Shown here: one piece after another, positions 13,328-64,000 of the stretch
How positions within the stretch are numbered: position 1 is the stretch's first letter
Layout: every line of letters starts with the position of its first letter
From: Scenedesmus sp. PABB004
Lineage: Eukaryota
Length of the DNA: 64,000 bases
NCBI GenBank assembly: GCA_014905635.1
Contig: JABVCE010000007.1
Span: 930,001-994,000 of the forward strand
Reading direction: 5' to 3'
The notes under the pieces: generated by a model
Told to the model about the DNA's origin: nothing
The model's input: the letters and a program-made list of their open reading frames with translations, nothing else
Databases searched by the model: none
Made by a program: the position numbers and the translations under genes

Positions 13328-13504
13328 GTGGACCCCCCGGCGTGAGCGGTGCGCCGCGCTGCGCTCTCCGTCCTGGGCAGGACGTTAAAAGGCCTCTTGC
13401 TGTTGTGTGTTGCCAGGTTAGGTCAGGCGTGTGTGCGCGTGTGTTTCTCGCATGGCCACCCGTTCCGGGTGGGGGGGACCCCCTCGCGGGGGCAACAACA
13501 ACAA

Positions 13505-13584
13505 GCCACAGCGGCGCGAGGCATAACGGTTTGGGACCGGCCCGCAGGTCGGTCCCAAACCGTTATGCCTCGCGCCGCTGTGGC
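13505..13584. repeat. Near-perfect hairpin, 38-bp stem (one G-T pair) and 4-nt loop
   Basis: GCCACAGCGGCGCGAGGCATAACGGTTTGGGACCGGCC-CGCA-GGTCGGTCCCAAACCGTTATGCCTCGCGCCGCTGTGGC. Confidence 0.95.
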
Positions 13585-13826
13585 CTGTTTCAGGCGGCCG
13601 GCGATCAGAGGATGCCCATGGTCGGTGTTGGCGGCGGCGGCGCGCGCGCGCGGCGGTGGCAGCGCCGCGCACGCGCGCCGCGCGCCCGCGGCGTCGGGGC
13701 GCCCCCCGGGGCGCCCCGGCAGCCCCCATCCCCCCAGCCGCCGGTGTTGAGACCACCGGCCGGCGCTCCCACGGCGGTTGCGAGCCGGCGGGGAGCACGC
13801 CCAGCGCGGTGCTCATAGCCCAGGGA

Positions 13827-15846: not shown

Positions 15847-18800
15847 CTAGCCGCCCAGCGCGCCGCCGCCGGACGCTGCCAGGGCTGCCGCCGCGGCGCT
15901 CGTGGGCGCGTGGCGTGCAAGCAGGTAATCGTGCACGTAGAGCATCAGCGCGACGGGCTGGCCCACGATGCAAAAGCTGCGGCGCGGCGGCGGCAGCGGC
16001 AGCGGCGGCGTGCGTCGGCGGGCTGTGCGTCGGCGGGGGCAGCGCGCAGCGCAGAGCGGCGCGCAGGGCGGCGTCGCGCGGCGCGCCCCACCTCGCCCAA
16101 AACAGCATGTTGCCCCTGCGCGCGGCGGGCGGCGGCGCGCGCGGCCGCGCGTGGGCGGCGAGCGGCGCGAGCGCGGGGCGGCGTGCCGGCGGGCGCCGCG
16201 CCGCGCCGCGCCGCGCACCACGTGTCTGACTTGAGCCGCTTGCGCAGGCGCTCGGTGAAGCTGATCAGTGGCACCTGACCAGACCGGCGCGGCGCGGCGC
16301 GCGGTCAGCTGGCACCGCCCAGCGCCGCGCGCACCCCCGCCCCCGCCGCCGCCGCGCCCGCCCCCGCCGTCCGGCACTGCCGCGGCCCGCGCCGCCCGCG
16401 CCCCAGCCCCCGCGCCCAGCGCCCGCGCCTCTCCCCCGCCGCCGGCGCGGCGCGGCGCGCCTGGAGCATGACGCCGGCAAAGGACCAGAGCTTGACCATG
16501 TGCAGCGGCACGCCGACCGCGACCTCGTGGGCCACGGCGCTTATGAAGAAGACCAGCACCATCGCGCGGTACCTGGGGAGGGGGGGGATCAGGGTTTAGG
16601 GTTTAGGGTTTAGGGTTGAGGTCCAAGCCCAGGGCGGCGCGGGACGGCGGGCGGGCGTGCGGCGGGCGAGCGGGCGGGCGGGGCGTGCGGGTGAGCGCGG
16701 GGGGGTGCAGCCATGCGGCGGCGGGCGGGCGGGCGGCGGGCGGCGGGCGGCGGGCGCCCCGCGCGCGGCGCGCCTGCCCATCCCCGCGCGCATCGCTGGG
16801 AAGTAGACCGTGCGCAGGAGCCACTTGTGCACCGGCTGCAGCGGCGCGGGGCAGGCGCGGCAGGCGAGGCGCGGCGGTCAGGGCGTGCGCGGCGCGCGTG
16901 CGCTGCAGGCTGGCCGCGCCCCGCCCCGCGCGGCGCCGCGCATCGCGACAAACCATGTTCCAGGCCTGCGGCGGCGGCGGCGGCGGCGAGGCGGCGGCGC
17001 AGCGGGGCGCGCGTGGGCGCGCGGGCGCGGCGCGTGCGGGGGAAGGTTGGGGGCGTCAACAGGGTGCGCCGCGGGCCTGGTTGGGCCGATGCGGGCGGGC
17101 GCGCGAGTCACCTTCCAGTACTCGCCCACCGTCGCGGCGTTCCACCAGTCCTTGTAGAACTCTGCGGCGCCACATCCGCACGCGCAGGCGCGCGTGACGC
17201 GGGGGCGGCGGGGGCGGGGGCGTGCGCGCAGCGCGGCGCAGCGCGCGGCGCGGCGCGGCGCGCGCGCGCCGCGGGCGCACCGCGGTCGCCAAAGCGCGTG
17301 AGCTGCGCGGCGGCCGGCGCCGGCGGCGGCGGCGGTACGGCGGCGGTCAGGCGGCGGCTACGCGTGGTCGCGCCCGCCGCCCCACGCGCAGCACGTCGGC
17401 TCCGGCGCGCTGCGCGGCGCGGCGCAGCGCAGCCCGGCGGCGCTGCGCGCGTGTGCGTGCGCGCACCTCTGCGAGTATGTTGAGCCAGAGGTGGAACAAG
17501 CAGTAGAACATGCAGAGCCAGCAGTAGAGGTTTGGCAGCGCGAGCTTGAGCACGCGCTCCGCGACGCGCGGCCAGTCGCTCGTGGACAGCGGGGTCATCG
17601 CGTTGGACACGGCTGGCTCGAGGTACTGGTTGGCCATGAACAGCAGCACTGGCCCCAGGGGGGGGCGGTGGGGGGGAGGGGCGGTGGGGGGCGGTGGGGG
17701 GGAGGGTGAGGGAGGGTGAGGGAGGAGGGTGAGGGAGGAGGGTGAGGGAGGGGGTGAGGGAGGGGGTGAGGGAGGGGTGAGGGTGGGGACGGGGAGGGGG
17801 GAGGGAGGGAGCGGGAGGAGGGTGAGGGAGGGTCAGAGAGAGAGTGAGGAGGCGTGCGGGGAGGAGTGCGGGAGCATGTGCGCAGGCAGGGCGCGGCGCG
17901 GGCGAGGCGCGGGCGGCGCGCTCACGGCCGCAGAAGCACGCGAGCTCGACCAGGCGGCGCAGCAGCCAGCGCTTGCGGATGCGCGGCGTCGTGGGGAAGT
18001 TGACCTGCGGCAGGGGGCAGGGCGGGGCAGAGCATGGGCGCCGCCGGCCGGCCGCTCGGCCCCCCGCGCGGGCGCTTCCAGCCCACACACTCCCGCGCGT
18101 GTGCGCGCGTGTGCGCGTGTGTGCGCCGCGCGTGCGCCGCGGCGCGCCTGGTAGACGAGCGTGGGCACGGCCAGGAAGTAGAGCATGTTTGGCACCGTCA
18201 GGTTCTCGGGGAACCGCAGCGTCGCCCACGCGGGGTCGGACTCTGCGGCGCGGGACCACGCGCGCGCGTTGGAGCGCACGCACGCCTTTCGGATGCGGCG
18301 CTTGGGCCGCGGCGCGGCGCCGCGCGCGCGCACCCGGCGCGCCGCGCTCGCCGGGGCGCAGCAGGTTGGCGCGGTGCGCGACGCGCAGGTCGTGGTGGCA
18401 GTGGGCGTAGGACACGAGCTTCATCCACACGCACAGCGTGCACAGCGTGAGCACAAACCCGGGCGCCGCGTCGGCGCGCGTCGCGTGGATGACCGCGCAC
18501 GGCAGCAGCAGCGCGGCGGTCGTGTTGGCCGCGTTGAGCCCAAACAGCAGCGCCTCGGTGCGGCGCACGCGCGACGCGTACGCGGACGCGGCCTTGGCCT
18601 CGTGCAGCTGCTTCTTGGCGAGGCCCTTCTTGAACTGCGCGGCGCGGCGCGGGGCCCAGGCAGGGGGTGGGGAGCGAGCGGCGGCGACGGGCGACGCGGC
18701 GCGCCCGAGCCTCGCCGGGCAGCACCCGCCGCCGCACAGCGCCGCCGCCGCCGCCGCGCCTGCTCCTCCGCGCGGAGGCACGCGACGCCGAGCTTCTCCG

Positions 18801-21091: not shown

Positions 21092-22240
21092 ATGCAGGCG
21101 CCGCCGCACCACGCCGCCCCACCGCCGGGCGGCGGCGCCGCGCAGCAGCCGCCGCCGTGCGGGCTGGAGCAATGCGCGGTGGCGCAGCTGCTCGTGCGCG
21201 AGGCGCAGGCCGAGATCGGCAACCTGCGCGCGGAGCTGTACAGCGCCCAGCGCCTGGCGGAGGAGCGGCGGTGCGCCGCGGCGCCCACCGCCGGCCGCCC
21301 CCCGCGCCGGCCGCCGTTGGCCGACCGCCGCCCCGCGCGCCGACCGCCGCCGACCCCCGCCGACCGCCGCCGGCTGCGGCGCCACCGCCTCAAATCGCAG
21401 GCAGGCGCTGGACGCGATGACGGGCGCGCGAGACCAGCTGGCGGCGGTGGCGCGCCAGCTCGAGGAGCGCGTGGCGGGCCTGCAGGCGCAGGCGGGCGCG
21501 CTGCCGGCGGCGCAGCAGGAGCTGGCGGCGCTGCGCGAGCTGCACGAGCGCCAGCAGCGCGACGTCCAGCTGCAGCTGCAGGCGCGGCGCATCCTGGAGA
21601 CGGAGCTGCAGGACGAGCGCGCGGCGCGCGGCGCGGCGGAGGAGGCGCGCGCGCGCGCCGAGGCGGAGCGCAGCCGGCTCGCGCTCGCGCGCGACGAGGC
21701 CGCCGCGCAGCTGCGCGTGGCGCGGCAAAAGGCGGAGGACGCCGAGGAGGAGCAGCTGCGCGCGGAGGAGGACGCGGCGCAGCTCCGCCGCGAGCTGGGC
21801 CTGGCGCAGGCGGCCGCGGCGGGCGGCGGCGGCGCCGGCGGCGCCGCCGGCGGCGCGGGCGGCGGCGGCGGCCCGACCGATGCGGCGGCGCTGCGCGCGG
21901 AGCTGCAGGAGCAGCACGTGCGAGGCGCGGCGCTCATGCAGGCGCTGCAGGAGGTGCAGGCCGAGGCGGGCGCGGCCAAGGCGGAGGCGCGCGCGCTGCA
22001 GCGGCAGCTCGCCGACGCGCGCGGCGCGGCAGAGGCGGCGGAGCGCCGCGCGGCGCAGCTGGAGGCCGGCGAGCGGGGCGGCCAGCAGCGAGGCGAGGCG
22101 AGCGCCGACGGCGCGGCCGCGCAGGCACGCGCCGAGCGCGAGCTCGCGGCCGCGCGGCAGCAGGTCGCAGCGCTGCAGCAGGAGGCCGCCTCTGCGCGCG
22201 CCGCGGCCGCGACCGCCGCGGCGCAGCTGCGGGCGGCGGC

Positions 22241-22303
<63 letters not shown>

Positions 22304-22970
22304 CGGCGGGGCAGCGCCGGCGCCGCGGCAGGCGCCCGAGGCGTCGGCGGCGGAGGAGGCGCTGGAGGAGCAGGTGGAGCTGCTCATGCGCAAGGTGGTC
22401 GCGCTCAAGACGAGCCGCGACAAGCTGCTGGCGCAAATGGACCGGCAGAGCGTCGAGCTGGAGCAGGCGGCGGTGGAGAGCCAGGTGCGGGGCCGGAGGG
22501 CGGGGTTGGTGGTGAGAGGAGGTGGCGAGCGCCGCGCAGCGCAGCCACGCCGCCCCGGCTGACGGCACGCGCGCCCGCCGCCGCCGCCGCCGCGCCAGGC
22601 GCTGGCGGGCGAGTCCGCCGCGGCGGCGGAGCAGAGTGCGGCGTGGCAGGCGCAGGCGCATGACGCGCTGGCGACCATCGCGCGGCTGCAGGACCTGCTG
22701 GCCGAGAGCGCCAGCTGGGAGGCCGCGCAGCGCGGCGGCGGCGGCGGCGGCGACGCCGCGCCGAGCGGCGGCGACGCCGCTTCGCTGCACGCCGAGCTGC
22801 TCGCGGAGCGCGCCCGCAGCGCGCGGCTGGACCTGCAGTCGCGCGTGCTGGCCGCACAGCTGCTGCGGGGCCACGCCGCGCACGCCGGCGCGGCGCGCGC
22901 GCTGGTGCCGCTGCTGAGCGGCGTTGAGGCGCGGCTGCTGGGCCTCAAGGCCGCCACCGGCCGGCGGTGA
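21092..22970 (+). CDS. Coiled-coil protein with poly-Q tract, function unknown; divergent from DGAT1
   Basis: Three exons (introns ~21271-21400 and ~22485-22598), E/Q/A/L/R-rich heptads, (CAG)n at ~22242-22301, TGA at 22968-22970. Confidence 0.75.
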
Positions 22971-23863
22971 CGCGGGCGCGCGGAGGGCGGGCGTGGGGCG
23001 CCGCCGCGGGACGCGGGCGGCGCGCGCTGCAGCGGTCGGCGCGGCGGTGCAGCGGCGCCGGAACCCCTGTCCGCGCCGGCGCCCCCGCGCACGGCGCCCT
23101 CGCCCCGCGCAACACTCTGCGCCACCGCACGCCCCGCGCCCGTGCTAGCTACGCGAGCAGCGCGCCATAACGCCACCGCGCTCCCGCCGCGCGCTCGAGC
23201 CGATGCTGGCCGCCCTCGGCGCCTGATCGTTCGAGGCGCCGCCCACAGCAGCCGTCCCCGGGCGCGCGGCGCGCGCAGGGGCCGCCATGTTGCAGCAGCA
23301 GCGCGGCCTGGCGCCACCGCCAGCGCCAGCCGGGGCCGCCCGCGCGGTGAGCGGGCCGCGGCGGGCCGGCGGGGGGGGGACTGCGGTGCAGTCGCGCTAA
23401 GCCCCGTTGCGCCGAGCCGCCCCCGCACCGCCGCGCGCAGGCGCCCCCGAGCCGGCCACTGCCACGCCGACCGCATCGGGCGCCTGGCGACACAAGCACG
23501 CGCGCAGGGACCGAGCAGCGGGCCGCCCCGCGGGCGCCGAGTCTTCGCCGCGCGCGGCCTGGCCTCCCGGAATCACGCGCGGCGCTAAACAAGTCCACCA
23601 ACGCGCGCGCCGGCAATCCGGGCACCTTCCCGGGCCTCGCGGGGCGCGCACGCGCAGGTGCGGCTTTTGAATGATTGATGGGCCGCCCGGGCTTGCCGCG
23701 CGCCCGCGGACCGCCCGCGCCGCGGCGAGCTCTCCGCACCAACGCGCGCACAAGCCACGAAGCGCCGGCCGCCCGCGCGGCGCCGCGCGGGGCCGCGCAG
23801 CAGCGCGGCGCGAGCGCTGCGCGCGCCGCCAGCGCTGCCGCCCGCCGCCGCCGCGTCGCGCAG

Positions 23864-24384
23864 GCGTGGTGTCGTCGGGCCTGCTGGCCCAGCATGGGAT
23901 CTCCGGCGTGCTCCCGCCGGGCTACAAACTCTCTTCTGCGGGCCCGCTCAACCCCGGCGGCGAGCCCGCGAGCCGCGAGCTGCTCGTCGCGGCGCAGCTG
24001 CAGCAGAAGCGCGACGCGGGTGCGCGCCAGCCCGCCCGCCCGCGCGCGTGGCTCGGCAGCGCGCCGCGCCCTTCACTGCCGCCCTAGCCTAACGTCGCCA
24101 CCGCCACAGGCTACGCGCGCGTGGAGGCGGCGGCGGCGCGCCGGGGCAGCACGCTGCAGCGGCATACGCTGACCGACTACGAGGTGCGCGAGCTGCGCGC
24201 CATCAAGTCCAAGATCGACGGCAAGACCACGATCAAGCGCTGGGCCTGGCTGCTGGTCTCGCGCGACGGCAAGAAGACGCCGCTCAACATGCCGAAGGTC
24301 AGCGAGCAGAAGCGCGCGGGCTACTTCAAGAGCCAGTTCCAGAGCTACGACAAGCGCGTCAAGCAGGCGCAGGCGGGGTGCTGA
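23864..24384 (+). CDS. Hypothetical basic protein, two exons; start unclear (possible ATG at 23671, or 5'-truncated)
   Basis: Codon-biased exons VVSSGLLAQHG...QQKRDA|GYARVE...KRVKQAQAGC*, intron 24020-24109. Confidence 0.55.
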
Positions 24385-24390
24385 GTTAAC

Positions 24391-24665
24391 TTCCCGCGGG
24401 CTCTGCCACATGAACAAGCACGTGCGCAAGTGAGTGGTAGATACTCGCGCGGCCGCGGCGCGGGCGGTGGTGCCGGGCGGGCGTGCTGCGCGCGGGCGCG
24501 GCTGGCCAGCCTGGCGCCGAGGCGCGCCGGCCGCCCGCGCGCGCCCTCTGCCGCAGGTGCCTGGCCGAGGAGAAGCAGGTGTACACCAGCGACTGCGGGC
24601 GCTTCATCCACGGCAAGGGCTCGGCGGCGCCGGCGGCGGGCGGCGGCGACGACGGCGAGAGCTGA
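24391..24665 (+). pseudogene. Duplicated last two exons of the ACL5-type thermospermine synthase
   Basis: [41 protein letters not shown], near-identical to the reverse complement of 53036-53309; no upstream exons. Confidence 0.9.
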
Positions 24666-24885
24666 GCGGTCGCGTGTTTGCGCGGCGGCGCGCGCGTGAC
24701 CTCTGGGGCTGCTCCTGTGACGCCGCCTCCACCGCCACTGCCCCACCGCGCTCCCGCACGGCCCCCAGCCCCGCGCAGCGCCCCAACCACGCGCCAGGGG
24801 CAGGGCCATCGCGCTGCGCACTCAGCGCCGCGCCCCTCGCGCCGCGCCGCGCGGCCTCGCGCCCAGTTCGGCCGCGCAGCGCGCC

Positions 24886-26913
24886 ATGCAGCTGACGGGC
24901 GTGCTGCCGGGCCTGGGCGCGCCTCCCGCTGGGCGCGCGGCGCGGGGCGGGCGGGCGTTTCACGCCGGCCGCCCGCACCTAGGCGCGGCCGCGGCGCGGC
25001 GCTGCGGCCTGCCGGCGCGCCACCGGGGCCGCCTGGCGCCGGTGTCGGCGGCGTCGGTGGCGTCGCAGCCCGCCGCGGGCGCGGTGGCGCGCCCGCCCGC
25101 GCCCACCGTGGCCCACCTGAGCCTCACGGCGCCCCAGGAGGCGCACTTTGAGGAGGGCACGACCGTGTTTGCCGAGGAGTTTCGCATCCGCGGCAACGAG
25201 GCGGGGCCCGACCAGCGGGCCAACATCATCACCATCGCCAACCTGCTGCAGGCGCGCCCCCGCGCCCCGCGCCGCCCCGCCGCGGCGCGCAGCGGCTCGC
25301 CCTCACCCGCGCGCGTCTCTCGCCGCCGGCGCAGGAGGTGGGCGGCAACCACGGCGTCGCGATGTGGGGCCGGGCGAGCAGCGGCTTTGCTGCCATGCCG
25401 GGCATGGACCACCTCATCTTCGTGGCCACGCGCATGCAGATCCGCATGGAGGCCTACCCCAACTGGTGGGCGGCCCGCGCCGCCGCCCAGCGTCACCAGC
25501 AGCGCGCGCGCAGCAGCGCGCGCTGCGCGCCGCGCGCGGGCGACCGGCGGCCGCGCCTGCGGCAGGGGCAGCGCGCCGCGCGCCGCCGCCGGGCCCCCTG
25601 CGCGCCGCGCGCCGCCCACGCGCGCGCCGCCGCCACCGCCGCGCCCAGGGGCGACATCGTGCGGCTGGAGACCTACTTTGCGGAGGACGGCCGCCTCGCG
25701 ACGCGGCGCGACTGGCGCATCTCCAACGCGGTCACGGGCCAGCACCTCGGCGCCGCCACCAGGTGCGGCGGCGGCAGAGCGAGCAGCGTCAGCGGCGGCG
25801 GCGGCGGCGGCGGCGGCGGGGCGGGGGCGGCAGTGCCAGCCGGGGCGGCAGCGGCGGCGGCGGCGGCAGCAGCAGCAGCAGCAGCAGCGGCAGCTGTGCG
25901 CGCGCACGCGCGGGCCGCGGGCGCGCGCCGGCGCCCCAGCGCGCGCGCCCGACGCGCGCCCGCGCCCGCGCCCGCCGCCGCGCGCGCAGCACGTGGGTGA
26001 CGATCAACGCCGAGACGCGCAAGCTGGCCAAGATCCCAGAGGAGGTCAAGCAGCGATTCCTGCGCCTCGCGCCCGACCCGCCGCGCACCGCCATCCCCAC
26101 GAGCGACACGCGCAAGAAGCTGCCCGAGTTTGTGTGGCCGCCGCAGCTGACGGCGCCGAGCCAGCTCGGGCGGCGCAGCGACATGGACCCCAACGGCCAC
26201 ATTAACAACGTCGCGTACCTCGCCTGGGCGCTGGAGGTCATCCCCGACCACATCTACCACAACTACCAGCTCGCTGAGGTGCGGCGCGCGCTCGCAGGAC
26301 GGCCGCGCGCGCGCTCGCAGGACGGCCGCGTGGGCTCGCAGGACGGCGGCGCGCGTCGCGTGCGCTCGGCCAGCCAGCCGCGCGCGCGCCCGGGCCGCGC
26401 GCCCACCGCGCCGCGCCGCTGCACCTGCGCGCGGCGCAGGTCGAGATGGACTTCAAGGCCGAGTGCACGGCGGGCGACCAGATCGAGTGCTTCGGCATGC
26501 CGCTGACCAACTGCGCGGACGAGAACGGCAGCCAACAGCAGTTCCTGCACCTCCTGCGCAAGGGCGGCTCCGACACCGAGGTCTGGCGCGCGCGCACGAC
26601 GTGGGCCGCGCTGCCGCCGAGCCGGCGGCCCGCCGGCGCGGCCGCGGCGTCGGTGCTCAACGGCACGAGCCTCGCGCCCAACGGCAAGGCGCCGCCCGCG
26701 GCGGCCAACGGCAAGGCGCCGGCCGCCGCGGCGGCCAACGGCAAGGCGCCGCCGTGCGCCAGCGGCAGCGGCAGCGGCAGCAGCAGCAGCGGCGGCGCCG
26801 CCGCGAGCGCCGCGGGCGACGGCGCGACCACGACGACCTGCGCCAAGACGAGCTGCGCCAAGACCACCTGCAGCAACAACAGCGGCCCCGCGCAAAAGAC
26901 GAGCAGCAGATGA
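24886..26913 (+). CDS. FAT1: Plastid acyl-ACP thioesterase
   Basis: FAEEFRIRGNEAGPDQRANI..IANLLQ|EVGGNH, ATRRDW, RRSDMDPNGHINNVAYLAW, DFKAEC. Confidence 0.93.
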
Positions 26914-35524: not shown

Positions 35525-35910
35525 CAGAGCCCGCCGACACACTTACCGGGCCCTGGCCCGCCGCCGGCCCGTCGGGGCGCGGTAAGGCCTCTGTGGCAGC
35601 GGGTGAGGCAGCGGGTCGAGGCACCGTGGCCGCCGCCTCTCATGCCTGCGCCGCCTCGCCAGCGCCGCCGTCGGCCAACCAGGGCCGCCGCCCGCGCCGC
35701 GAGGCCGCCACCCGCGCCGCGCCGCCGCGCGCAGGAGGAGGCAGCCCGATGGCGTGGGGTGGCTGCAGCCTCTGCAGCCCAGCCACGGCGTGACCGGCCG
35801 GCGGCGCAGCATCAAGGACAGCGCCGCAGCGCCGCTGCCGGGCCCCAAAACCCAGTCACCAGCGTGCGCATCGCCACACAGCGCGCGTTCAACTCGCCAG
35901 AGCTGTGTGA
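35525..35910 (+). pseudogene. Decayed copy 2 of the 34896 ORF plus upstream sequence
   Basis: CAGCCACGGCGTGA, GCGCAGCATCAAGG and GTGCGCATCGCC..GTTCAAC.CGCCAGAGCTGTG match 34917-35077 with indels. Confidence 0.8.
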
Positions 35911-37564: not shown

Positions 37565-37890
37565 TGAGCCCGCTGGCAGCACACCGGGCGGCGTCGCGGC
37601 GAGCTTGGCCCGCCCCTGTGCTGTCGGGGCGAGCCTCCGCGGCAGCGCGTTGAGGCACCATGGCCGCCTCGCTGCCAACCAGGGCCGCCGCATGCGCCGC
37701 GAGGCCGCCACCCCCGCCGTGCCGCCGCGCGCAGGAGGAGGCAGCCCGACGGCGTGGGAGCTGCAGCTGCGCCGCCGCAGCACCTCAGCCGTTGTGAAGA
37801 AGCGGCGTGATCGGCCGGCTGCGGCGGGCGCGCCTGCGGCAGCGCGAGCAGCTCTGGCCACGCGGCGGCGTGGCGGCGCGCGGCCGCAGG
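37565..37890 (+). pseudogene. Internally deleted copy 3 of the 34896 ORF region
   Basis: Shares GCCAACCAGGGCCGCCGC...GCGCAGGAGGAGGCAGCCCGA with 35674-35749, and GTGAAGAAGC..GATCGGCCGGCTGCG plus GGCCACGCGGCG with the ORF ends. Confidence 0.75.
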
Positions 37891-52600: not shown

Positions 52601-52838
52601 GGCAGCGGCGGCAGCGGTCAGCGCCGCCCGCCGCGTGGCGCACGCATGCGCGCGGCCGGCGGCGCGGCCCCGCCCGGCGCCTCACCTGCGTGCCCTGCCT
52701 CCGCACGGCCGGCGGCCGCGCCAGGACGGCCAGGCGCCGCGGGGCGGCCGGCTGCTGCGGGCGGGGGGCCCTGCTGCCGGCCCGGCGCGCGCCGGCGGGC
52801 GCGGCCAGGCCCGGCAGCACGCCCATCATCATCTGCAT
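49642..52838 (-). CDS. QS: Plastid quinolinate synthase (SufE-NadA fusion)
   Basis: SufE HRVMGCAAQ|AWV and SDSALTAGL; NadA VVAHFYMDPE, DSLVMAD, GVDFMSENV, GCSLA, VYINTS, CTSSN, CIVHH, CASCPYMKMN. Confidence 0.94.
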
Positions 52839-53035
52839 GGCGCGCTGCGGCGCCGAATTGGGCCGAAAGCCGCGCGCAAGCTGCGCGGGCTGGGCAGCGA
52901 TGGCCGGGGCTCGCGAGTGGCTGGGACGCTGCGCGCTGTGGCTGTTGAGTCCGGCGGGAGCGCGCTGCGGGAGTGGCGGTGGGAGCGTCACAGAGCGGCC
53001 CCAGGTCACGGCGCGCGCAAAACGCCGCCGGCCGC

Positions 53036-55043
53036 TCAGCTCTCGTCGCCGCCCGCCGCCGGCGCGGCCGAGCCCTTCCCGTGGATGAAGCGCCCGCAGT
53101 CGCTGGTGTACACCTGCTTCTCCTCGGCCAGGCACCTGCGCGGCGCGCGGCGAGGGCGCGGGAGGTCGTGAGCGAGCGGGCGTGGCGGGGGCGCGGCGCG
53201 CCCGCGTCTGCGCCAGGCTGACCAGCGCGCGCGCTCGCGCCGCTGCAGGCGCGCCACTGGCGCCGACTCACTTCCGCACGTGCTTGTTCATGTGGCACAG
53301 CCCCCGGAAGGTCTCGCCGTCGAGGAAGCGCATCTCGCCGGCCACGCGGTCCGCGAGCCGCGCGTCCATGTCGGCCGGCGGCAGCTCCGCCTGCGCCGGG
53401 TCGGTGAACGCGATGTTCCACCCCCAGACGTCGCAGAAGACGGGCATGTGCTGCGCGTAGGGCAGGACGCGCGGGAAGACGCTGCGCAGCGTCGCGTTGA
53501 TGCAGGTGAAGACCTCGGTGCACGAGAGGAAGCCCGCGGGCCCGCTCTGCGTCACAAAGATGCCGCCCGGGTTGAGCTTCTGCTTCACCACGTTCTCGTA
53601 AAAGTCCTGCGAGCGCGCGGCGCGGGCAGGCCGCGCGCGCGGCGGCAGGGGGCGCGTCGGCCGGCCGCCGCGCGGCGCGCGCCGCGCGCCCGTCCTGCGA
53701 GCCGCGCGCCGCGTGCGCGCGCCCGTCCTGCAAGCCGCGCGCCCGTCCTGCAAGCCACGCGCCGCGCGCCGCGCGCGCCTGGGTGTAGAGCTGGTAGCAG
53801 GGCCCGCCGTCGAGCGGGTCGGCGAGGTCGCCGATGATGACGTCAAACTTGCCGGGCCACGCCTCGAGCTGTGTGCGCGCGTCGTCGTTGATGAGCTCCA
53901 GCTTCGGCGACTCAAACGCCGCCTTGTTGTGCTCCAGGTGCGCGTGGCAAAAGTCGCACACGACCTGGCACAGCGCGCGCGCGTGTGGCGGCGGCGAGCG
54001 ACGTGGGCGGGGGCGCCTCGGGCCGCCGCGACGCCTCGGGCCGCCGCCGAGGCGTCTGCGCCCCCCGCTGCGCCCTGCTGCTGCTGCCCCTCGCGCCCGC
54101 CCACCTTGTCAATGTCCACCATGACCACCTTCTCGACGCTCTTGTGCCGCAGCACCTCGCGCGCCGTCGCGCCCTCGCCGCCTGCGCGGCGCGGCGGCGC
54201 GCACGCGCGTGGGCCCCGGTGCGCATGCGCAGCCGCGCCGCACGCACGCCCCCGCCCCGCCCCACCCCGCCCCGCCGCAGGCTGGCGCGGGCGCCGCCGC
54301 GGCGCTGGCGCGCACCGCCGCAGATGAACACTGTCTTGGGGTTTGGGTGCATGATGAGCGCGGGGTGCACGAGCAGCTCGTGGTAGACCCACTCGTCGAC
54401 CGCGCTGCTCTGCACCTTGCCGTCAAGGAACAGCGTCTGCGCGGCGCGCCGCGCGCGCGGGCAGCCAGCAGCGTGTGAGGCCGCGCCGGCGCGGGCCGGT
54501 GCCGGCGCGCGCCGCCTGCGGCCGAGCTGCTGCCCGGCCGGCGGGGCCGCCGGCGGGCTGGCCGGTGGGGGTGGCTGGTCAGCTGGCCGCGGCTGCCGCC
54601 CGGCTGCCTGGTGGGCGCGCAGCAGCTGCCCGGCTGCCTGGCCGGCGCGTGCGCGGCGCGCGGGGGGCGCGGCACGGCGGGGGCACGCGCGGGGGCGCCC
54701 GCGGCGGCGGCGCCCGCGGCGCGGCGCCGCTGGCGCGCCTTGCCGAACGGGCCGACGTCGATGAGGTCGACCTCTTGGTACTTGGACTTGCCCGAATACA
54801 GCACCTGCTTCACCAGCATCGACCACTTGAGGTCGTCCGCCAGGTCCTCCTCCAGCTGCGGGCGGCGGGCGCGCCGGCGCGGCGCGTCGGCCGCCGCCGC
54901 TGCCGCCGGCGGCTGCGCCGACGCGCGCCGCCGCCGGGCCGCCCCATTGGCCAGCCGCTGCGCCCGGAGCGGCGCGGTGGCGGCCAGACTCGGACGCGCG
55001 GCTCGGCACGCACCCACAGCCGCTTGGTGTAGGTCTCGGCCAT
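53036..55043 (-). CDS. ACL5: Thermospermine synthase (ACL5-type aminopropyltransferase)
   Basis: [62 protein letters not shown]. Confidence 0.88.
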
Positions 55044-59531: not shown

Positions 59532-59905
59532 TCGCAGATCGCCGCAGCCGCCTGGGCTGCACGCCGGCGCCGGACGGGGATGCGCCTATGCAGAGTGAGA
59601 GGCAGCAGATTCATGGCTGCAACGGCGTGTGGCAACCGGCGCGCGCCCTCGGACGGGGCGCACGTCCGTGGCGCCGCCCGCGCGTGCGGGGCGCTGAGCG
59701 CAGGCTCTGGCTGCGCCGCTCCCAGCACTGTCTCACCACCTGTGCTCGGCCCACGGCCTGAAGGCGCAGCTGTACAGCACCTCCTTGCGCGTGCCCGCCC
59801 GCGGAGCGCGCAGCAATCAAACGACGCGCGCCGGCGCCTGTCGTCAGAGCAGCAGCCATCCGCAGCCGCCGCGTAGGTACTGGGGTGCAACTTTATGGCC
59901 GCGAA

Positions 59906-60344
59906 AAGTGAACTCACGCCTCGCGGCCCGTCCGTGACTGCTCGTGGGCGCGGACCGGCGGCGGCGGCGGCGGCATCTCTCACGGCGCGTGAGCTCGCGA
60001 GCCCTCAACTGCACGATCTCGCCCGGCTGGCGCGCTCGGCATGTTGCCAACATGCCCGGGTATATCAAGCCACCAGGGGGAATCGTGGGTATGGGGGTAG
60101 ACGCGGAGCAGGCGGCACGCGAGCAGCGGCGGCGTCGAGTGCTCCGCGTAGACCCCCATACCCACGATTCCCCCTGGTGGCTTGATATACCCGGGCATGT
60201 TGGCAACACGCCGAGCGCGCCAGCCGGGCGAGATCGTGCAGTTGAGGGCTCGCGAGCTTACGCGCCGCGAGACATGCCGCCGCCGCCGCCGCCGGCCCGC
60301 CCCCACGAGCTGTCACGGACGGGCCGCGAGGCGTGAGTTCACTT
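59906..60344. ncRNA. Long foldback (205-bp arms, 29-nt loop); candidate miRNA/siRNA precursor
   Basis: 59906-60110 is the reverse complement of 60140-60344 with few mismatches; looser pairing extends to ~59865/60385. The inverted repeat is certain, the RNA function is inferred. Confidence 0.6.
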
Positions 60345-60670
60345 GGAGGTGCCATGGCATTGCACCAGAGCACCTGTGCAGCAGCAGGCAGCCTCCCACC
60401 TGCCGGCGCCAACGCATCACCACGGCTTCACAGAGCTGCTGCGGCGTGCGGCCGCACGAGCCGGCCGCACTGTGCGCCCTCTCTGCCCCGCAGGCGCAGG
60501 CCCAAGCTGCCGCTGCAGGCAGGAGTGTGAGTTCCAGCGCCCTGCGCGCCTGTCGGGGCCTGGCGGGTGCGATTGGCGCGCTCGGCCAGCAGCGACGGCG
60601 CTCGGTCGACCGCGCGGTGCGTCTGCGCTGCTCTCACGCATTCACATCACGCGCAAAAATAATTACTGGC

Positions 60671-62761: not shown

Positions 62762-64000
62762 TCACGCGAGGCTGCGGCTGCGGCTCCGGCTGCGGCTCAG
62801 GCTCCTGCTCGCCTCGCGCCGGGCCGGGCTCGCGCTGCCCGGGCGCGCGGGGCTCGCGCTGGCGCCGCGGCGCGCGGGGCTCGCGCTGGCGCCGCGGCGC
62901 GCGGGGCTGCGCCCGCGGCTGCGGCTGCGCGACTTGTCGCCGCCGCGCGCGGGGCTGCGGCTGCGGCTGCGCGCCTTGTCGTCGCCGTCGCCGCCACCGC
63001 CGCGCGCGGGGCTGCGGCTGCGCGACTTGTGGCCGCGCGAGCGCGAGCGCGAGCGGCTGCCGCCGCGGTCCCGCGTGTCCACCTTGACACGAATGTAGCA
63101 CCTGGGCGCGCCGCGGCGCGCGCGGCTCGGCCGGCGGCCCCGCTTGCGGCCGGGGCCGCAAGCGCGCGCTGCCCCTCGCGCCGTGCGGCCCGCGCCGCAC
63201 TTGTCAAAGGGGTTTTTGAACTCGGTGTCGTCGAGGCGGCGAATCGCGGCGGCCATGTCCTCCGCGGTCGTGTAGTCCACCAGGCCCGTGAGGCTGTCGC
63301 CGTCCTTGATGACCTGCGGGCGCGGCGGCAAAGGGCGTGGGCGCCGGGGCGCGGCGCCGGGGCGCGGGCGCGGGCGCGGGCACCGGGGCGCGGGCGCCGG
63401 GGCGCGGGCGCCGGGGCGCGGGCGCCGGGGCGCGGGCGCCGGGGCGCGGGCGCCGGGGCGCGGGCGCCGGGGCGCGGGCCGCGGGCTGCGCTGGGCACCT
63501 GCGCAAAGGTGACGTCGCCTGCCTTGCGCATGTGGTCCTTGAGGTCCTGCCAGGAGCACGTGATGGGCAGGCCGGTCACGATGACGCGGTGCGCGGTGCG
63601 CCGCGACGTGCTGCCGCCGCCGCCGCCGCCGCCGGTGCGGACGTAGCCGCCGCCGCCGCCGCCGCCGCGGGCGTAGCCGCCGCCGCCGCCGCCGTCGTAG
63701 CTGCGCACGCAGGCGGGCAGCGCGGTGAGCGCGGCGGCGGGGCTGCGGAGGGCGCGTCAGCGCGCGGGCGCACGAGCGCGCCGCGGCCTCGTGCGCACCG
63801 GCCGCCGCCGCCGCCGCCGTAGCCGCCGCCACCTCCGCCGTAGCCGCCGCCGCCTCCGCCGTAGCCCCCGCCGCCGCCACCGCCGTGACCGCCGCCGCCG
63901 CCGGCGCCGCCGCTGCCGAGGAAGGCGCCGCCGGGGCCACGCCGGCCGCCGCCGCGCGAGAGCTCGACCTGCGCGCGGCGGCGCGGTGCGGCGCGGCGCG
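62762..64000 (-). CDS. SR splicing factor, SRSF1/ASF-SF2 family; 5'-partial
   Basis: Pseudo-[38 protein letters not shown], Gly-rich linker, RS/RSPAR repeats; minus-strand TGTAA at 62628-62632. Confidence 0.92.
63340..63480. repeat. GC minisatellite (GGGCGCGGGCGCCG)n in an SR gene intron
   Basis: Tandem 14-mer visible in the sequence. Confidence 0.85.

Follow-up and report, generated by a model that had tools for sequence, protein, structure and literature searches.

An inverted partial duplication of an ACL5-quinolinate synthase junction probably re-headed an acyl-ACP thioesterase gene in Scenedesmus sp. PABB004

In a 64,000-nucleotide (nt) stretch of the Scenedesmus sp. PABB004 genome (contig JABVCE010000007.1, positions 930,001 to 994,000; hereafter the window), the first codons of an acyl-ACP thioesterase (FAT) gene and the DNA directly upstream of them match the junction between two other genes in the window, those for thermospermine synthase (ACL5) and quinolinate synthase (QS). 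We consider it probable that an inverted partial duplication of the ACL5-QS junction, made at the DNA level, re-headed FAT. In this event, ~526 nt would have been copied from the junction of the tandem ACL5 and QS genes, inverted, and inserted between a small gene and FAT, at a distance of 28 kb along the same chromosome; there the copy would have replaced everything from the stop codon of the small gene to about the original start codon of FAT. FAT would now begin at the copied QS ATG, its native transit peptide would be preceded by 17-18 QS-derived residues, and the 497 nt before the ATG would consist of ACL5- and QS-derived DNA only. We refer to the copy at the FAT locus, on the forward strand, as A, and to the parent at the ACL5-QS locus, on the reverse strand, as B.

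Results

The duplicated block

The window has a G+C content of 78.9% and contains no N, and the nearest relatives of its genes are found in the Sphaeropleales green algae Tetradesmus, Scenedesmus, Raphidocelis, and Monoraphidium. The protein collections searched contained none of the window's own proteins. At this G+C content six-frame open reading frames (ORFs) are meaningless, and genes were placed by Pfam searches of 61 ORF pieces together with tblastn of orthologous proteins.

Block A runs from 24389 to ~24939 (+) and block B from 53312 to ~52787 (-). An earlier note on this DNA had proposed that an ACL5-QS segment was duplicated, with 24391-24945 collinear with the reverse complement of ~52790-53309. 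Our comparison bears out both the duplication and the collinearity, which passes through exon, intron, exon, spacer, and start codons far above window controls, and refines the limits by a few nucleotides. At B (52787-53312), the segment comprises the end of the penultimate ACL5 exon (53312-53272), the last intron (53271-53136), the last exon (53135-53036), the ACL5-QS spacer (53035-52839), and the QS ATG at 52838 with the first ~17 codons. A has the same order: 41 nt from the end of the penultimate exon (13 codons and 2 nt; 24389-24429), the last intron with GTGAGT..CAG retained (24430-24556), the last exon with its stop codon at 24663-24665 and 9 extra in-frame nt (24557-24665), a 220-nt copy of the spacer (24666-24885), and the ATG and codons 2-18 of FAT (MQLTGVLPGLGAPPAGRA; 24886-24939), which were copied from the QS start. 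These parts were recognized against window controls, and also by splice sites for the intron, by self-BLAST and tblastn for the last exon, and by translation for the FAT codons. The earlier note had described the copied coding sequence as the last two ACL5 exons; the last intron and the whole last exon are present in A, but the penultimate exon, which is at least 342 nt long at B, is represented only by its final 41 nt.

The two blocks align with a gapped local score of 512 (24300-25100 against the reverse complement of 52620-53400), where 200 shuffles reached at most 96 and 146 other window pieces of equal length, from both strands, at most 149. Each segment was also compared with every other window piece of the same length, on either strand, with identity counted as identical positions over length. 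No control reached the score of the exon fragment (0/2570; identity 0.88, 1 gap event), the last exon (0/1208; identity 0.90, 2 gap events), the spacer (0/630; identity 0.75, 20 gap events), or codons 1 to ~17/18 (0/2422; identity 0.85, 3 gap events), and 6/1002 controls reached that of the intron (identity 0.70, 12 gap events). A repeat search of the window recovered the same pair of loci as inverted repeats I2 (24552-24649 / 53043-53140, 97%) and I24 (24389-24460 / 53241-53312, 79%). In a stringent self-BLAST of the whole window, used in place of a lax one that was swamped with GC-rich noise, 24552-24645 matches 53140-53047 with 97.9% identity over 94 nt (E 1.4e-42) and is the top pair except for a local foldback at 59.9-60.3 kb. 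Chance similarity is excluded by the window controls.

Outside the block, similarity between the loci falls within the control range, both to the left of A for 24100-24388 (340/430) and the wider flanks 23600-24388 (20/128) and 22900-23700 (45/72), and to the right past FAT codon 18 when compared with QS (173/748). Over greater lengths, the rest of FAT exon 1 gave borderline results against QS in two comparisons (7/318 and 8/246), the second of which was non-collinear on inspection. The similarity does not stop before the ATG, a possibility raised in the earlier note, and instead crosses it and continues ~17 codons in; the FAT and QS N termini translate exactly as written there. Microhomology could not be demonstrated at the junctions. 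Because intron and intergenic DNA were both copied, the event was DNA-based and a route through spliced RNA is ruled out. An inverted copy lying 28 kb away in cis is compatible with break repair that used a nearby template, or with template switching, as the mechanism.

Start and presequence of FAT

The FAT gene (24886-26913, +) has exons at ~24886-25251, 25332-25466, 25650-25760, 25982-26281, and 26437-26913, with exon ends being approximate, and all five align with the full-length orthologs P0007 and P0008 at 63-98% identity per exon (tblastn). Pfam places an acyl-ACP thioesterase match at 25.1-26.5 kb (+). The domain Acyl-ACP_TE_C scores 37.5 bits (cut-off 21; E 2.8e-9), and the N-terminal domain Acyl-ACP_TE scores 16.9 bits on a single-exon ORF piece, below its cut-off of 23.7. 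By homology, the gene is a plant/algal Fat-type acyl-ACP thioesterase. Intron 1 (25252-25331) seemingly has GC..AG ends, with CAG before the donor site and GCGCGC after it; the seven other donors that were read (three in FAT, one in the small gene, two in QS, and one in ACL5) and the ACL5 donor of the A copy are all GTG with G at +5.

The FAT start (ATG at 24886) reads MQLTGVLPGLGAPPAG.., and the QS start (ATG at 52838) reads MQMMMGVLPGLAAPAG... FAT exon 1 contains a single Met, and its frame is open upstream with no earlier in-frame ATG, so that FAT must start at the borrowed ATG, barring an unseen upstream exon. Translation of the chimeric FAT from this start is predicted from the open frame and the single ATG. 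The distance from the initial Met to the conserved sequence EEFRIRGNE is 96 residues in the window FAT and 68-76 residues in six of seven orthologs; in the seventh, the Raphidocelis FAT, it is 110 residues from a start that is doubtful. In a MAFFT alignment, residues 2-18 form an insertion and the rest (ARGGRAFHAGRPHLGAAAARRCGLP..) aligns with the transit peptides of the orthologs from their residue 2, including an R.C..P motif. Plastid presequences are expected to be without acidic residues, and there are none in the first 84 residues of FAT or in all 51 residues of QS exon 1.

The borrowed codons appear, from the predicted protein, to be a 17-18-residue N-terminal extension that stands ahead of the native FAT transit peptide and does not replace it. 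The earlier note had the QS 5′ end fused to the thioesterase core; judged by the Met-EEFRIRGNE distance and the MAFFT alignment, it instead lies ahead of a seemingly complete native transit peptide. The further claim of a borrowed plastid-targeting start holds in that the only possible ATG and ~17 codons come from QS, but a targeting function was not gained. FAT was already plastid-targeted, so what it gained is an extension and not targeting, and with only 17-18 residues added the likely effect is on expression rather than location.

Direction of copying

Copying from ACL5-QS to FAT is well supported. The ACL5 gene at B occupies 53036-54855 (-). Residues 20-327 of the ortholog P0038 (328 aa) match it in six collinear high-scoring segment pairs, or exons, at 54855-53048 (tblastn), and a Pfam spermine/spermidine synthase domain (Spermine_synth) lies at 55.2-52.6 kb (-). 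The best solved-structure match of an ACL5 exon is the Medicago thermospermine synthase 6bq2 (E 1.8e-28), with other aminopropyltransferases at 4.6e-5; a PDB search with the last exon alone, which at 32 residues is too short, gave no match. Orthologs of ACL5 carry the name thermospermine synthase in their sources, and the C-terminal peptide of the window ACL5 is the conserved ACL5 C terminus on comparison with them. By these matches the gene is a complete thermospermine synthase. P0038 has one other match in the window, of residues 296-316 at 24549-24611, which corresponds to the copied last exon at A; B alone carries a whole ACL5, and A just a tail fragment. The QS gene runs from 52838 to at least 49663 (-). 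Its SufE domain (93.2 bits, E 1.3e-26) and NadA domain (40.2 bits, E 2.8e-10) both exceed their Pfam cut-offs and lie at 52.7-50.5 kb (-), and residues 63-676 of P0014 are collinear with 52471-49663 (tblastn). Its domain content is that of a plant-type quinolinate synthase, with SufE followed by NadA in one gene.

The gene order at both loci agrees with this direction. Two contigs of related algae from a metagenome collection, L001 (58% GC) and L002 (70% GC), recovered with a degenerate pattern built on the DNA of the last ACL5 exon, both carry ACL5 and then QS on one strand, with exons collinear with window 54819-50416. Therefore, the ACL5-QS tandem is older than the duplication. At the FAT locus, residues 3-291 of the Tetradesmus obliquus model P0008 (582 aa) match 21149-22907, within a gene for a coiled-coil protein with a polyglutamine (polyQ) tract (21149-22970, +; placed by tblastn of P0008, stop codon at 22968-22970), and residues 266-558 match the FAT exons (tblastn). 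Because P0008 joins the coiled-coil gene and FAT, that order is ancestral, the coiled-coil gene is the ancestral upstream neighbor of FAT, and the ACL5/QS piece is the newcomer. The earlier note had read the direction of copying from the ACL5 remnant, and its reading is backed by the ACL5-then-QS order in both outgroup contigs and by the ancestral coiled-coil-then-FAT order. As separate observations, the fused model P0008 drops FAT's own presequence and is probably a mis-annotation, and the polyQ tract of the window coiled-coil gene is a (CAG)n run at 22241-22302.

The N termini point the same way. The motif GVLPGL was sought in samples of FAT (n=8, of which seven have their own start), QS (n=24), and ACL5 proteins (n=74), and was found in 0/8 FAT (0/7 with their own start), 0/24 QS, and 0/74 ACL5 sequences, being present only in the two window N termini. 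As no fetched ortholog of the three proteins has the motif, the event is specific to this lineage, and the prospect raised in the earlier note of an outgroup FAT that already carries this N terminus was not borne out among the seven orthologs with their own start. The QS start inferred for L002, MQLGSITRVPSAGAARRGRA, resembles both window starts (MQL.., AG.A.R.G.RA), so that the shared start is QS-native; the A copy (MQL, AGRAARGGRA) is in places nearer to it than the B copy is. An MQL start is also present in 2/24 QS orthologs, which are Scenedesmus-like.

One FAT ortholog (P0007) also starts with MQL, as it would if the shared start and spacer were native to FAT and had been copied to QS. 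We regard this reverse direction as hardly credible: the shared block is continuous with the ACL5 exons and is integral to a complete ACL5 gene only at B, the ACL5-then-QS order is ancestral, and the MQL start of two of the 24 QS orthologs is shared by the inferred L002 QS.

The last ACL5 intron helps to date the duplication of the ACL5-QS junction. In the window (53271-53136) it lies between VRK and CLAEE, in L002 it is 8 codons further 3′, and in L001 it is absent (regions compared: L002 2448-2598 and L001 1218-1370). Since its position is the same in A and B, shifted in L002, and lacking in L001, the event came after the split from those lineages. Among these close relatives the pattern points to sliding of the intron or to its gain and loss.

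Judged from sequence, FAT is a chimeric gene made by DNA-level partial duplication, as indicated by the collinearity of parent and copy through noncoding intron and spacer, by a parent that is intact and ancestral, and by the finding that 0/7 FAT orthologs with their own N terminus carry the GVLPGL motif.

Alternative histories of the chimera

Several observations, here and in the comparison of spacers below, weigh against the re-heading of FAT as set out above. The alignment of FAT residues 19-60 with the transit peptides of its orthologs is low-complexity, weak, and only suggestive. A second FAT copy with the old start may be present elsewhere in the genome; our search for other ACL5 and FAT copies covered the 64-kb window. 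None of the contigs in four freshwater metagenome sets compared with 23600-26600 bridges 24389 or 24939. In these sets, a few short contigs match exon and intron parts of FAT at 25167-25336 and 25361-25511 with no differences and at 25989-26297 with two, and the other pieces over 23600-26600 are short GC-rich matches that continue unlike the window. A metagenome scan with FAT exon 1 peptides gave 595 pattern matches, of which none was confirmed.

The lack of a contig over either junction would fit an assembly artefact, in which a false join at 24389 or near 24939 made the chimera, as would the low-complexity, GC-rich sequence at the right junction. However, A and B are clearly diverged, with 79% of A positions identical, ~21% different, and ~38 gap events, so they are not one locus assembled twice, and A is a separate locus and not a collapsed repeat. 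In addition, the FAT frame is open from the copied ATG into conserved thioesterase sequence, and FAT exon 1 would be startless without the borrowed ATG. We therefore judge an artefact to be very improbable.

A further point of this kind is the substitution pattern in the ACL5-derived codons. Across 39 codons, the 7 substitutions between A and B comprise 6 synonymous and 1 non-synonymous (dS, the synonymous divergence, is ~0.23 and dN, the non-synonymous divergence, is ~0.011). There is also an indel of 9 nt, which is in frame, and the GT..AG splice ends and the stop codon are kept. The probability of at most one non-synonymous change among seven is P = 0.012 if A is neutral and B constrained (S = 26.2, N = 90.8 sites), although the numbers are small. 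With L001 and L002 as outgroups to polarize the changes, 3 synonymous substitutions and 1 non-synonymous one fall in the A lineage (P = 0.037 under neutral evolution) and a single synonymous one in the B lineage, with 2 left unassigned; these counts are likewise small, and the extreme base composition may bias the test. The sole non-synonymous change, F to S, is at a position where almost every ortholog has F, W, or L. This pattern is unlike that of a long-dead fragment and hints at coding constraint on the ACL5 remnant. The earlier note had called the ACL5 exons upstream of FAT orphaned; only a tail fragment is indeed present at A, but the substitutions suggest that it may not be simply orphaned. 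The pattern may stem from an initial duplication that was larger and held a functional ACL5, trimmed later, from continuing translation in some transcript, or from gene conversion.

In the first of these, the initial duplication would have produced a second, entire and functional ACL5, possibly along with more of QS, and later deletions would have left 550 nt, with the ACL5 tail behind the small gene and the start of the QS copy fused to FAT, giving the same end structure by another path. The excess of synonymous over non-synonymous changes between the A and B copies of the ACL5 codons and in the A lineage, the in-frame indel, and the retained splice sites and stop codon fit this history, as do the 1-2 gap events in the exons against 12 in the intron and 20 in the spacer. 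It would require at least two further precise deletions, however, and no trace of other ACL5 or QS sequence is found at A. The F to S change at a conserved residue suggests relaxed constraint, the counts are small, and exons are less repeat-like than the GC-rich spacer and hence less prone to indels. On balance, we consider a larger first duplication somewhat unlikely.

Upstream region of FAT

The gene upstream of A is a small two-exon gene (23671-24384, +), with exon 1 extending to 24019, an intron at 24020-24109 (GT..AG), exon 2 at 24110-24384, and a TGA stop codon at 24382-24384; its start codon is uncertain. Exon 2 has a strong coding signature resembling that of the FAT and ACL5 exons, with G+C contents of 0.59, 0.47, and 0.99 at the three codon positions, and the G+C content of the window dips to 63% at this gene. 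It matches no Pfam family, none of 1.84 billion representative proteins, and nothing in the ESM Atlas. Exon 1 encodes GISGVLPPG, which resembles GVLPGL and which we take to be a chance likeness, the region having no significant DNA similarity to B. Splicing of the small gene into the ACL5-derived exons, from a GT at 24378 that would be in frame with the last exon, was considered and is not supported owing to poor signals: the candidate donor has T at +5, where 8/8 donors that were read have G, and the candidate acceptor before 24386 is GAG, where 8/8 acceptors that were read are CAG.

The distance from the stop codon of the small gene to the FAT ATG is 501 nt, and all but ~4 nt of it is borrowed (497 nt, 24389-24885). 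Because the block begins 4 nt past the TGA, the DNA from that stop to the FAT coding sequence is borrowed, and the 3′ untranslated region (UTR) of the small gene must be ACL5-derived. If both genes are separate units, the proximal promoter and 5′ UTR of FAT and the 3′ end of the small gene plausibly all lie inside the borrowed 497 nt, an argument from position. Promoter capture is in the same way a plausible, positional argument, 24389-24885 being the whole space between the two genes. At B, the ACL5-QS spacer is 197 nt long (53035-52839), so that the 3′ end of ACL5 and the QS promoter would have to overlap or else be tightly packed in the window. The corresponding spacer is ~646 nt in L002, where it contains TGTAA, and ~974 nt in L001, both lengths resting on an ORF reading of the QS starts. 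A search for a conserved block between the B and L002 spacers gave a score of 27, compared with a mean of 24.6 and a maximum of 37 in shuffles, and hence no footprint of promoter elements.

It is also conceivable that no promoter was captured, and that FAT is transcribed with the small gene or from its promoter, in the bicistronic style of green algae, with ACL5-QS perhaps being a similar pair; the borrowed piece would then be inter-ORF sequence and a start codon only. Only 197 nt separate the ORFs of ACL5 and QS, and 501 nt those of the small gene and FAT, which is short in view of the medians reported for green algae, 212-260 nt in polycistronic pairs and 3264-3410 nt in other collinear pairs (Gallaher et al, 2021; PMC7896298). 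At A the upstream gene is also small, and neither spacer contains TGTAA. This sequence is, however, found 3 times in the whole window where 3.15 are expected, and its absence from the spacers says little, since it occurs at chance level. Moreover, ACL5 with ~330 codons (~1 kb) is larger than the medians of 444-600 nt given for upstream ORFs of polycistronic pairs (PMC7896298), the outgroup ACL5-QS spacers are normal-sized (~646 and ~974 nt), with TGTAA in that of L002, an ATG lies at 24410 between the two ORFs at A, and none of these genes is named in the main text or the 7 supplements of that paper. We consider bicistronic transcription of FAT quite unlikely.

Other features of the window

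The strongest repeat in the window is the foldback at 59865-60385, which consists of two 246-nt arms that are 90-93% complementary and a 29-nt loop. The window also contains an 85-nt direct repeat with 94% identity (35674-35758 / 37674-37758), the copies of which start exactly 2000 nt apart, a near-perfect 90-nt palindrome (13500-13589; 93%), a G-rich tandem array with a unit of 10-13 nt (17648-17862), and a tandem repeat with a 14-nt unit (63333-63479).

Discussion

The re-heading of FAT is at present a structural observation, drawn from the DNA alone. If the borrowed piece drives FAT, it would be a natural and fully traceable swap of a promoter and 5′ end in a green alga, in which donor and recipient, the two junctions, and what each locus looked like before the event can all be seen within 30 kb. 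If true, it would provide a candidate compact terminator-promoter module of less than 500 nt from an extremely GC-rich alga, as well as a test case for the weight that a few extra N-terminal residues carry in plastid import, and it would indicate that algae with compact genomes have a way of changing how a core lipid gene is regulated that requires no new gene. A bolder proposal, which we think rather unlikely, is that the 550-nt piece is a portable gene-end/gene-start cassette that ends the small gene and drives and starts FAT in the same way that it ends ACL5 and drives QS. Plastid fatty-acid release and NAD synthesis would then have twin control regions, and the ACL5-derived codons would be under protein-level selection, being still translated, or having been translated until recently in a second ACL5 gene.

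No paper that combines two of the three gene names was found in the literature collection searched. Re-headed FAT would nevertheless be a clean and not an unprecedented case, as both presequence gain and chimeras from partial duplication are already established. Organelle presequences have been gained from duplicated nuclear genes for targeted proteins by exon shuffling, as described for rpl32 with a Cu-Zn SOD transit peptide in Populus, rps11 in rice, and cytochrome c1 with GAPDH exons (PMC7488351; PMC7456531). As in those cases, the 5′ coding start of a gene for a plastid protein, with DNA upstream of it, would have been duplicated at the DNA level to become the start of another gene. In contrast, FAT encoded a plastid-targeted protein before the event and has apparently retained its native transit peptide in full, with only 17-18 residues added, and the block at A carries the 3′ end of the donor's upstream neighbor and is inverted, 28 kb off, on the same chromosome.

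In Drosophila yakuba, partial or tandem duplications are described as a source of chimeric genes that acquire new 5′ ends together with regulatory DNA (PMC5460883), and such genes have been reviewed (PMC3449122). There, as reported, and in the window alike, a partial copy reaching across a gene boundary puts the 5′ part of one gene onto the body of a second, with a possible change in expression. Unlike the chimeras reported from D. yakuba, the event in the window is inverted and dispersed rather than tandem, and its recipient is the gene of an essential single-domain enzyme at its ancestral locus, so that an existing gene would have been re-headed and no new gene made. The polycistronic pairs of green algae offer a third comparison, as the spacing of 197-501 nt between the collinear ORFs in the window falls in or close to the range given for such pairs (PMC7896298). 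The window differs from the pairs reported there in the large size of its upstream ORF at the parent locus, in the normal length of the outgroup spacers, and in being known from sequence alone.

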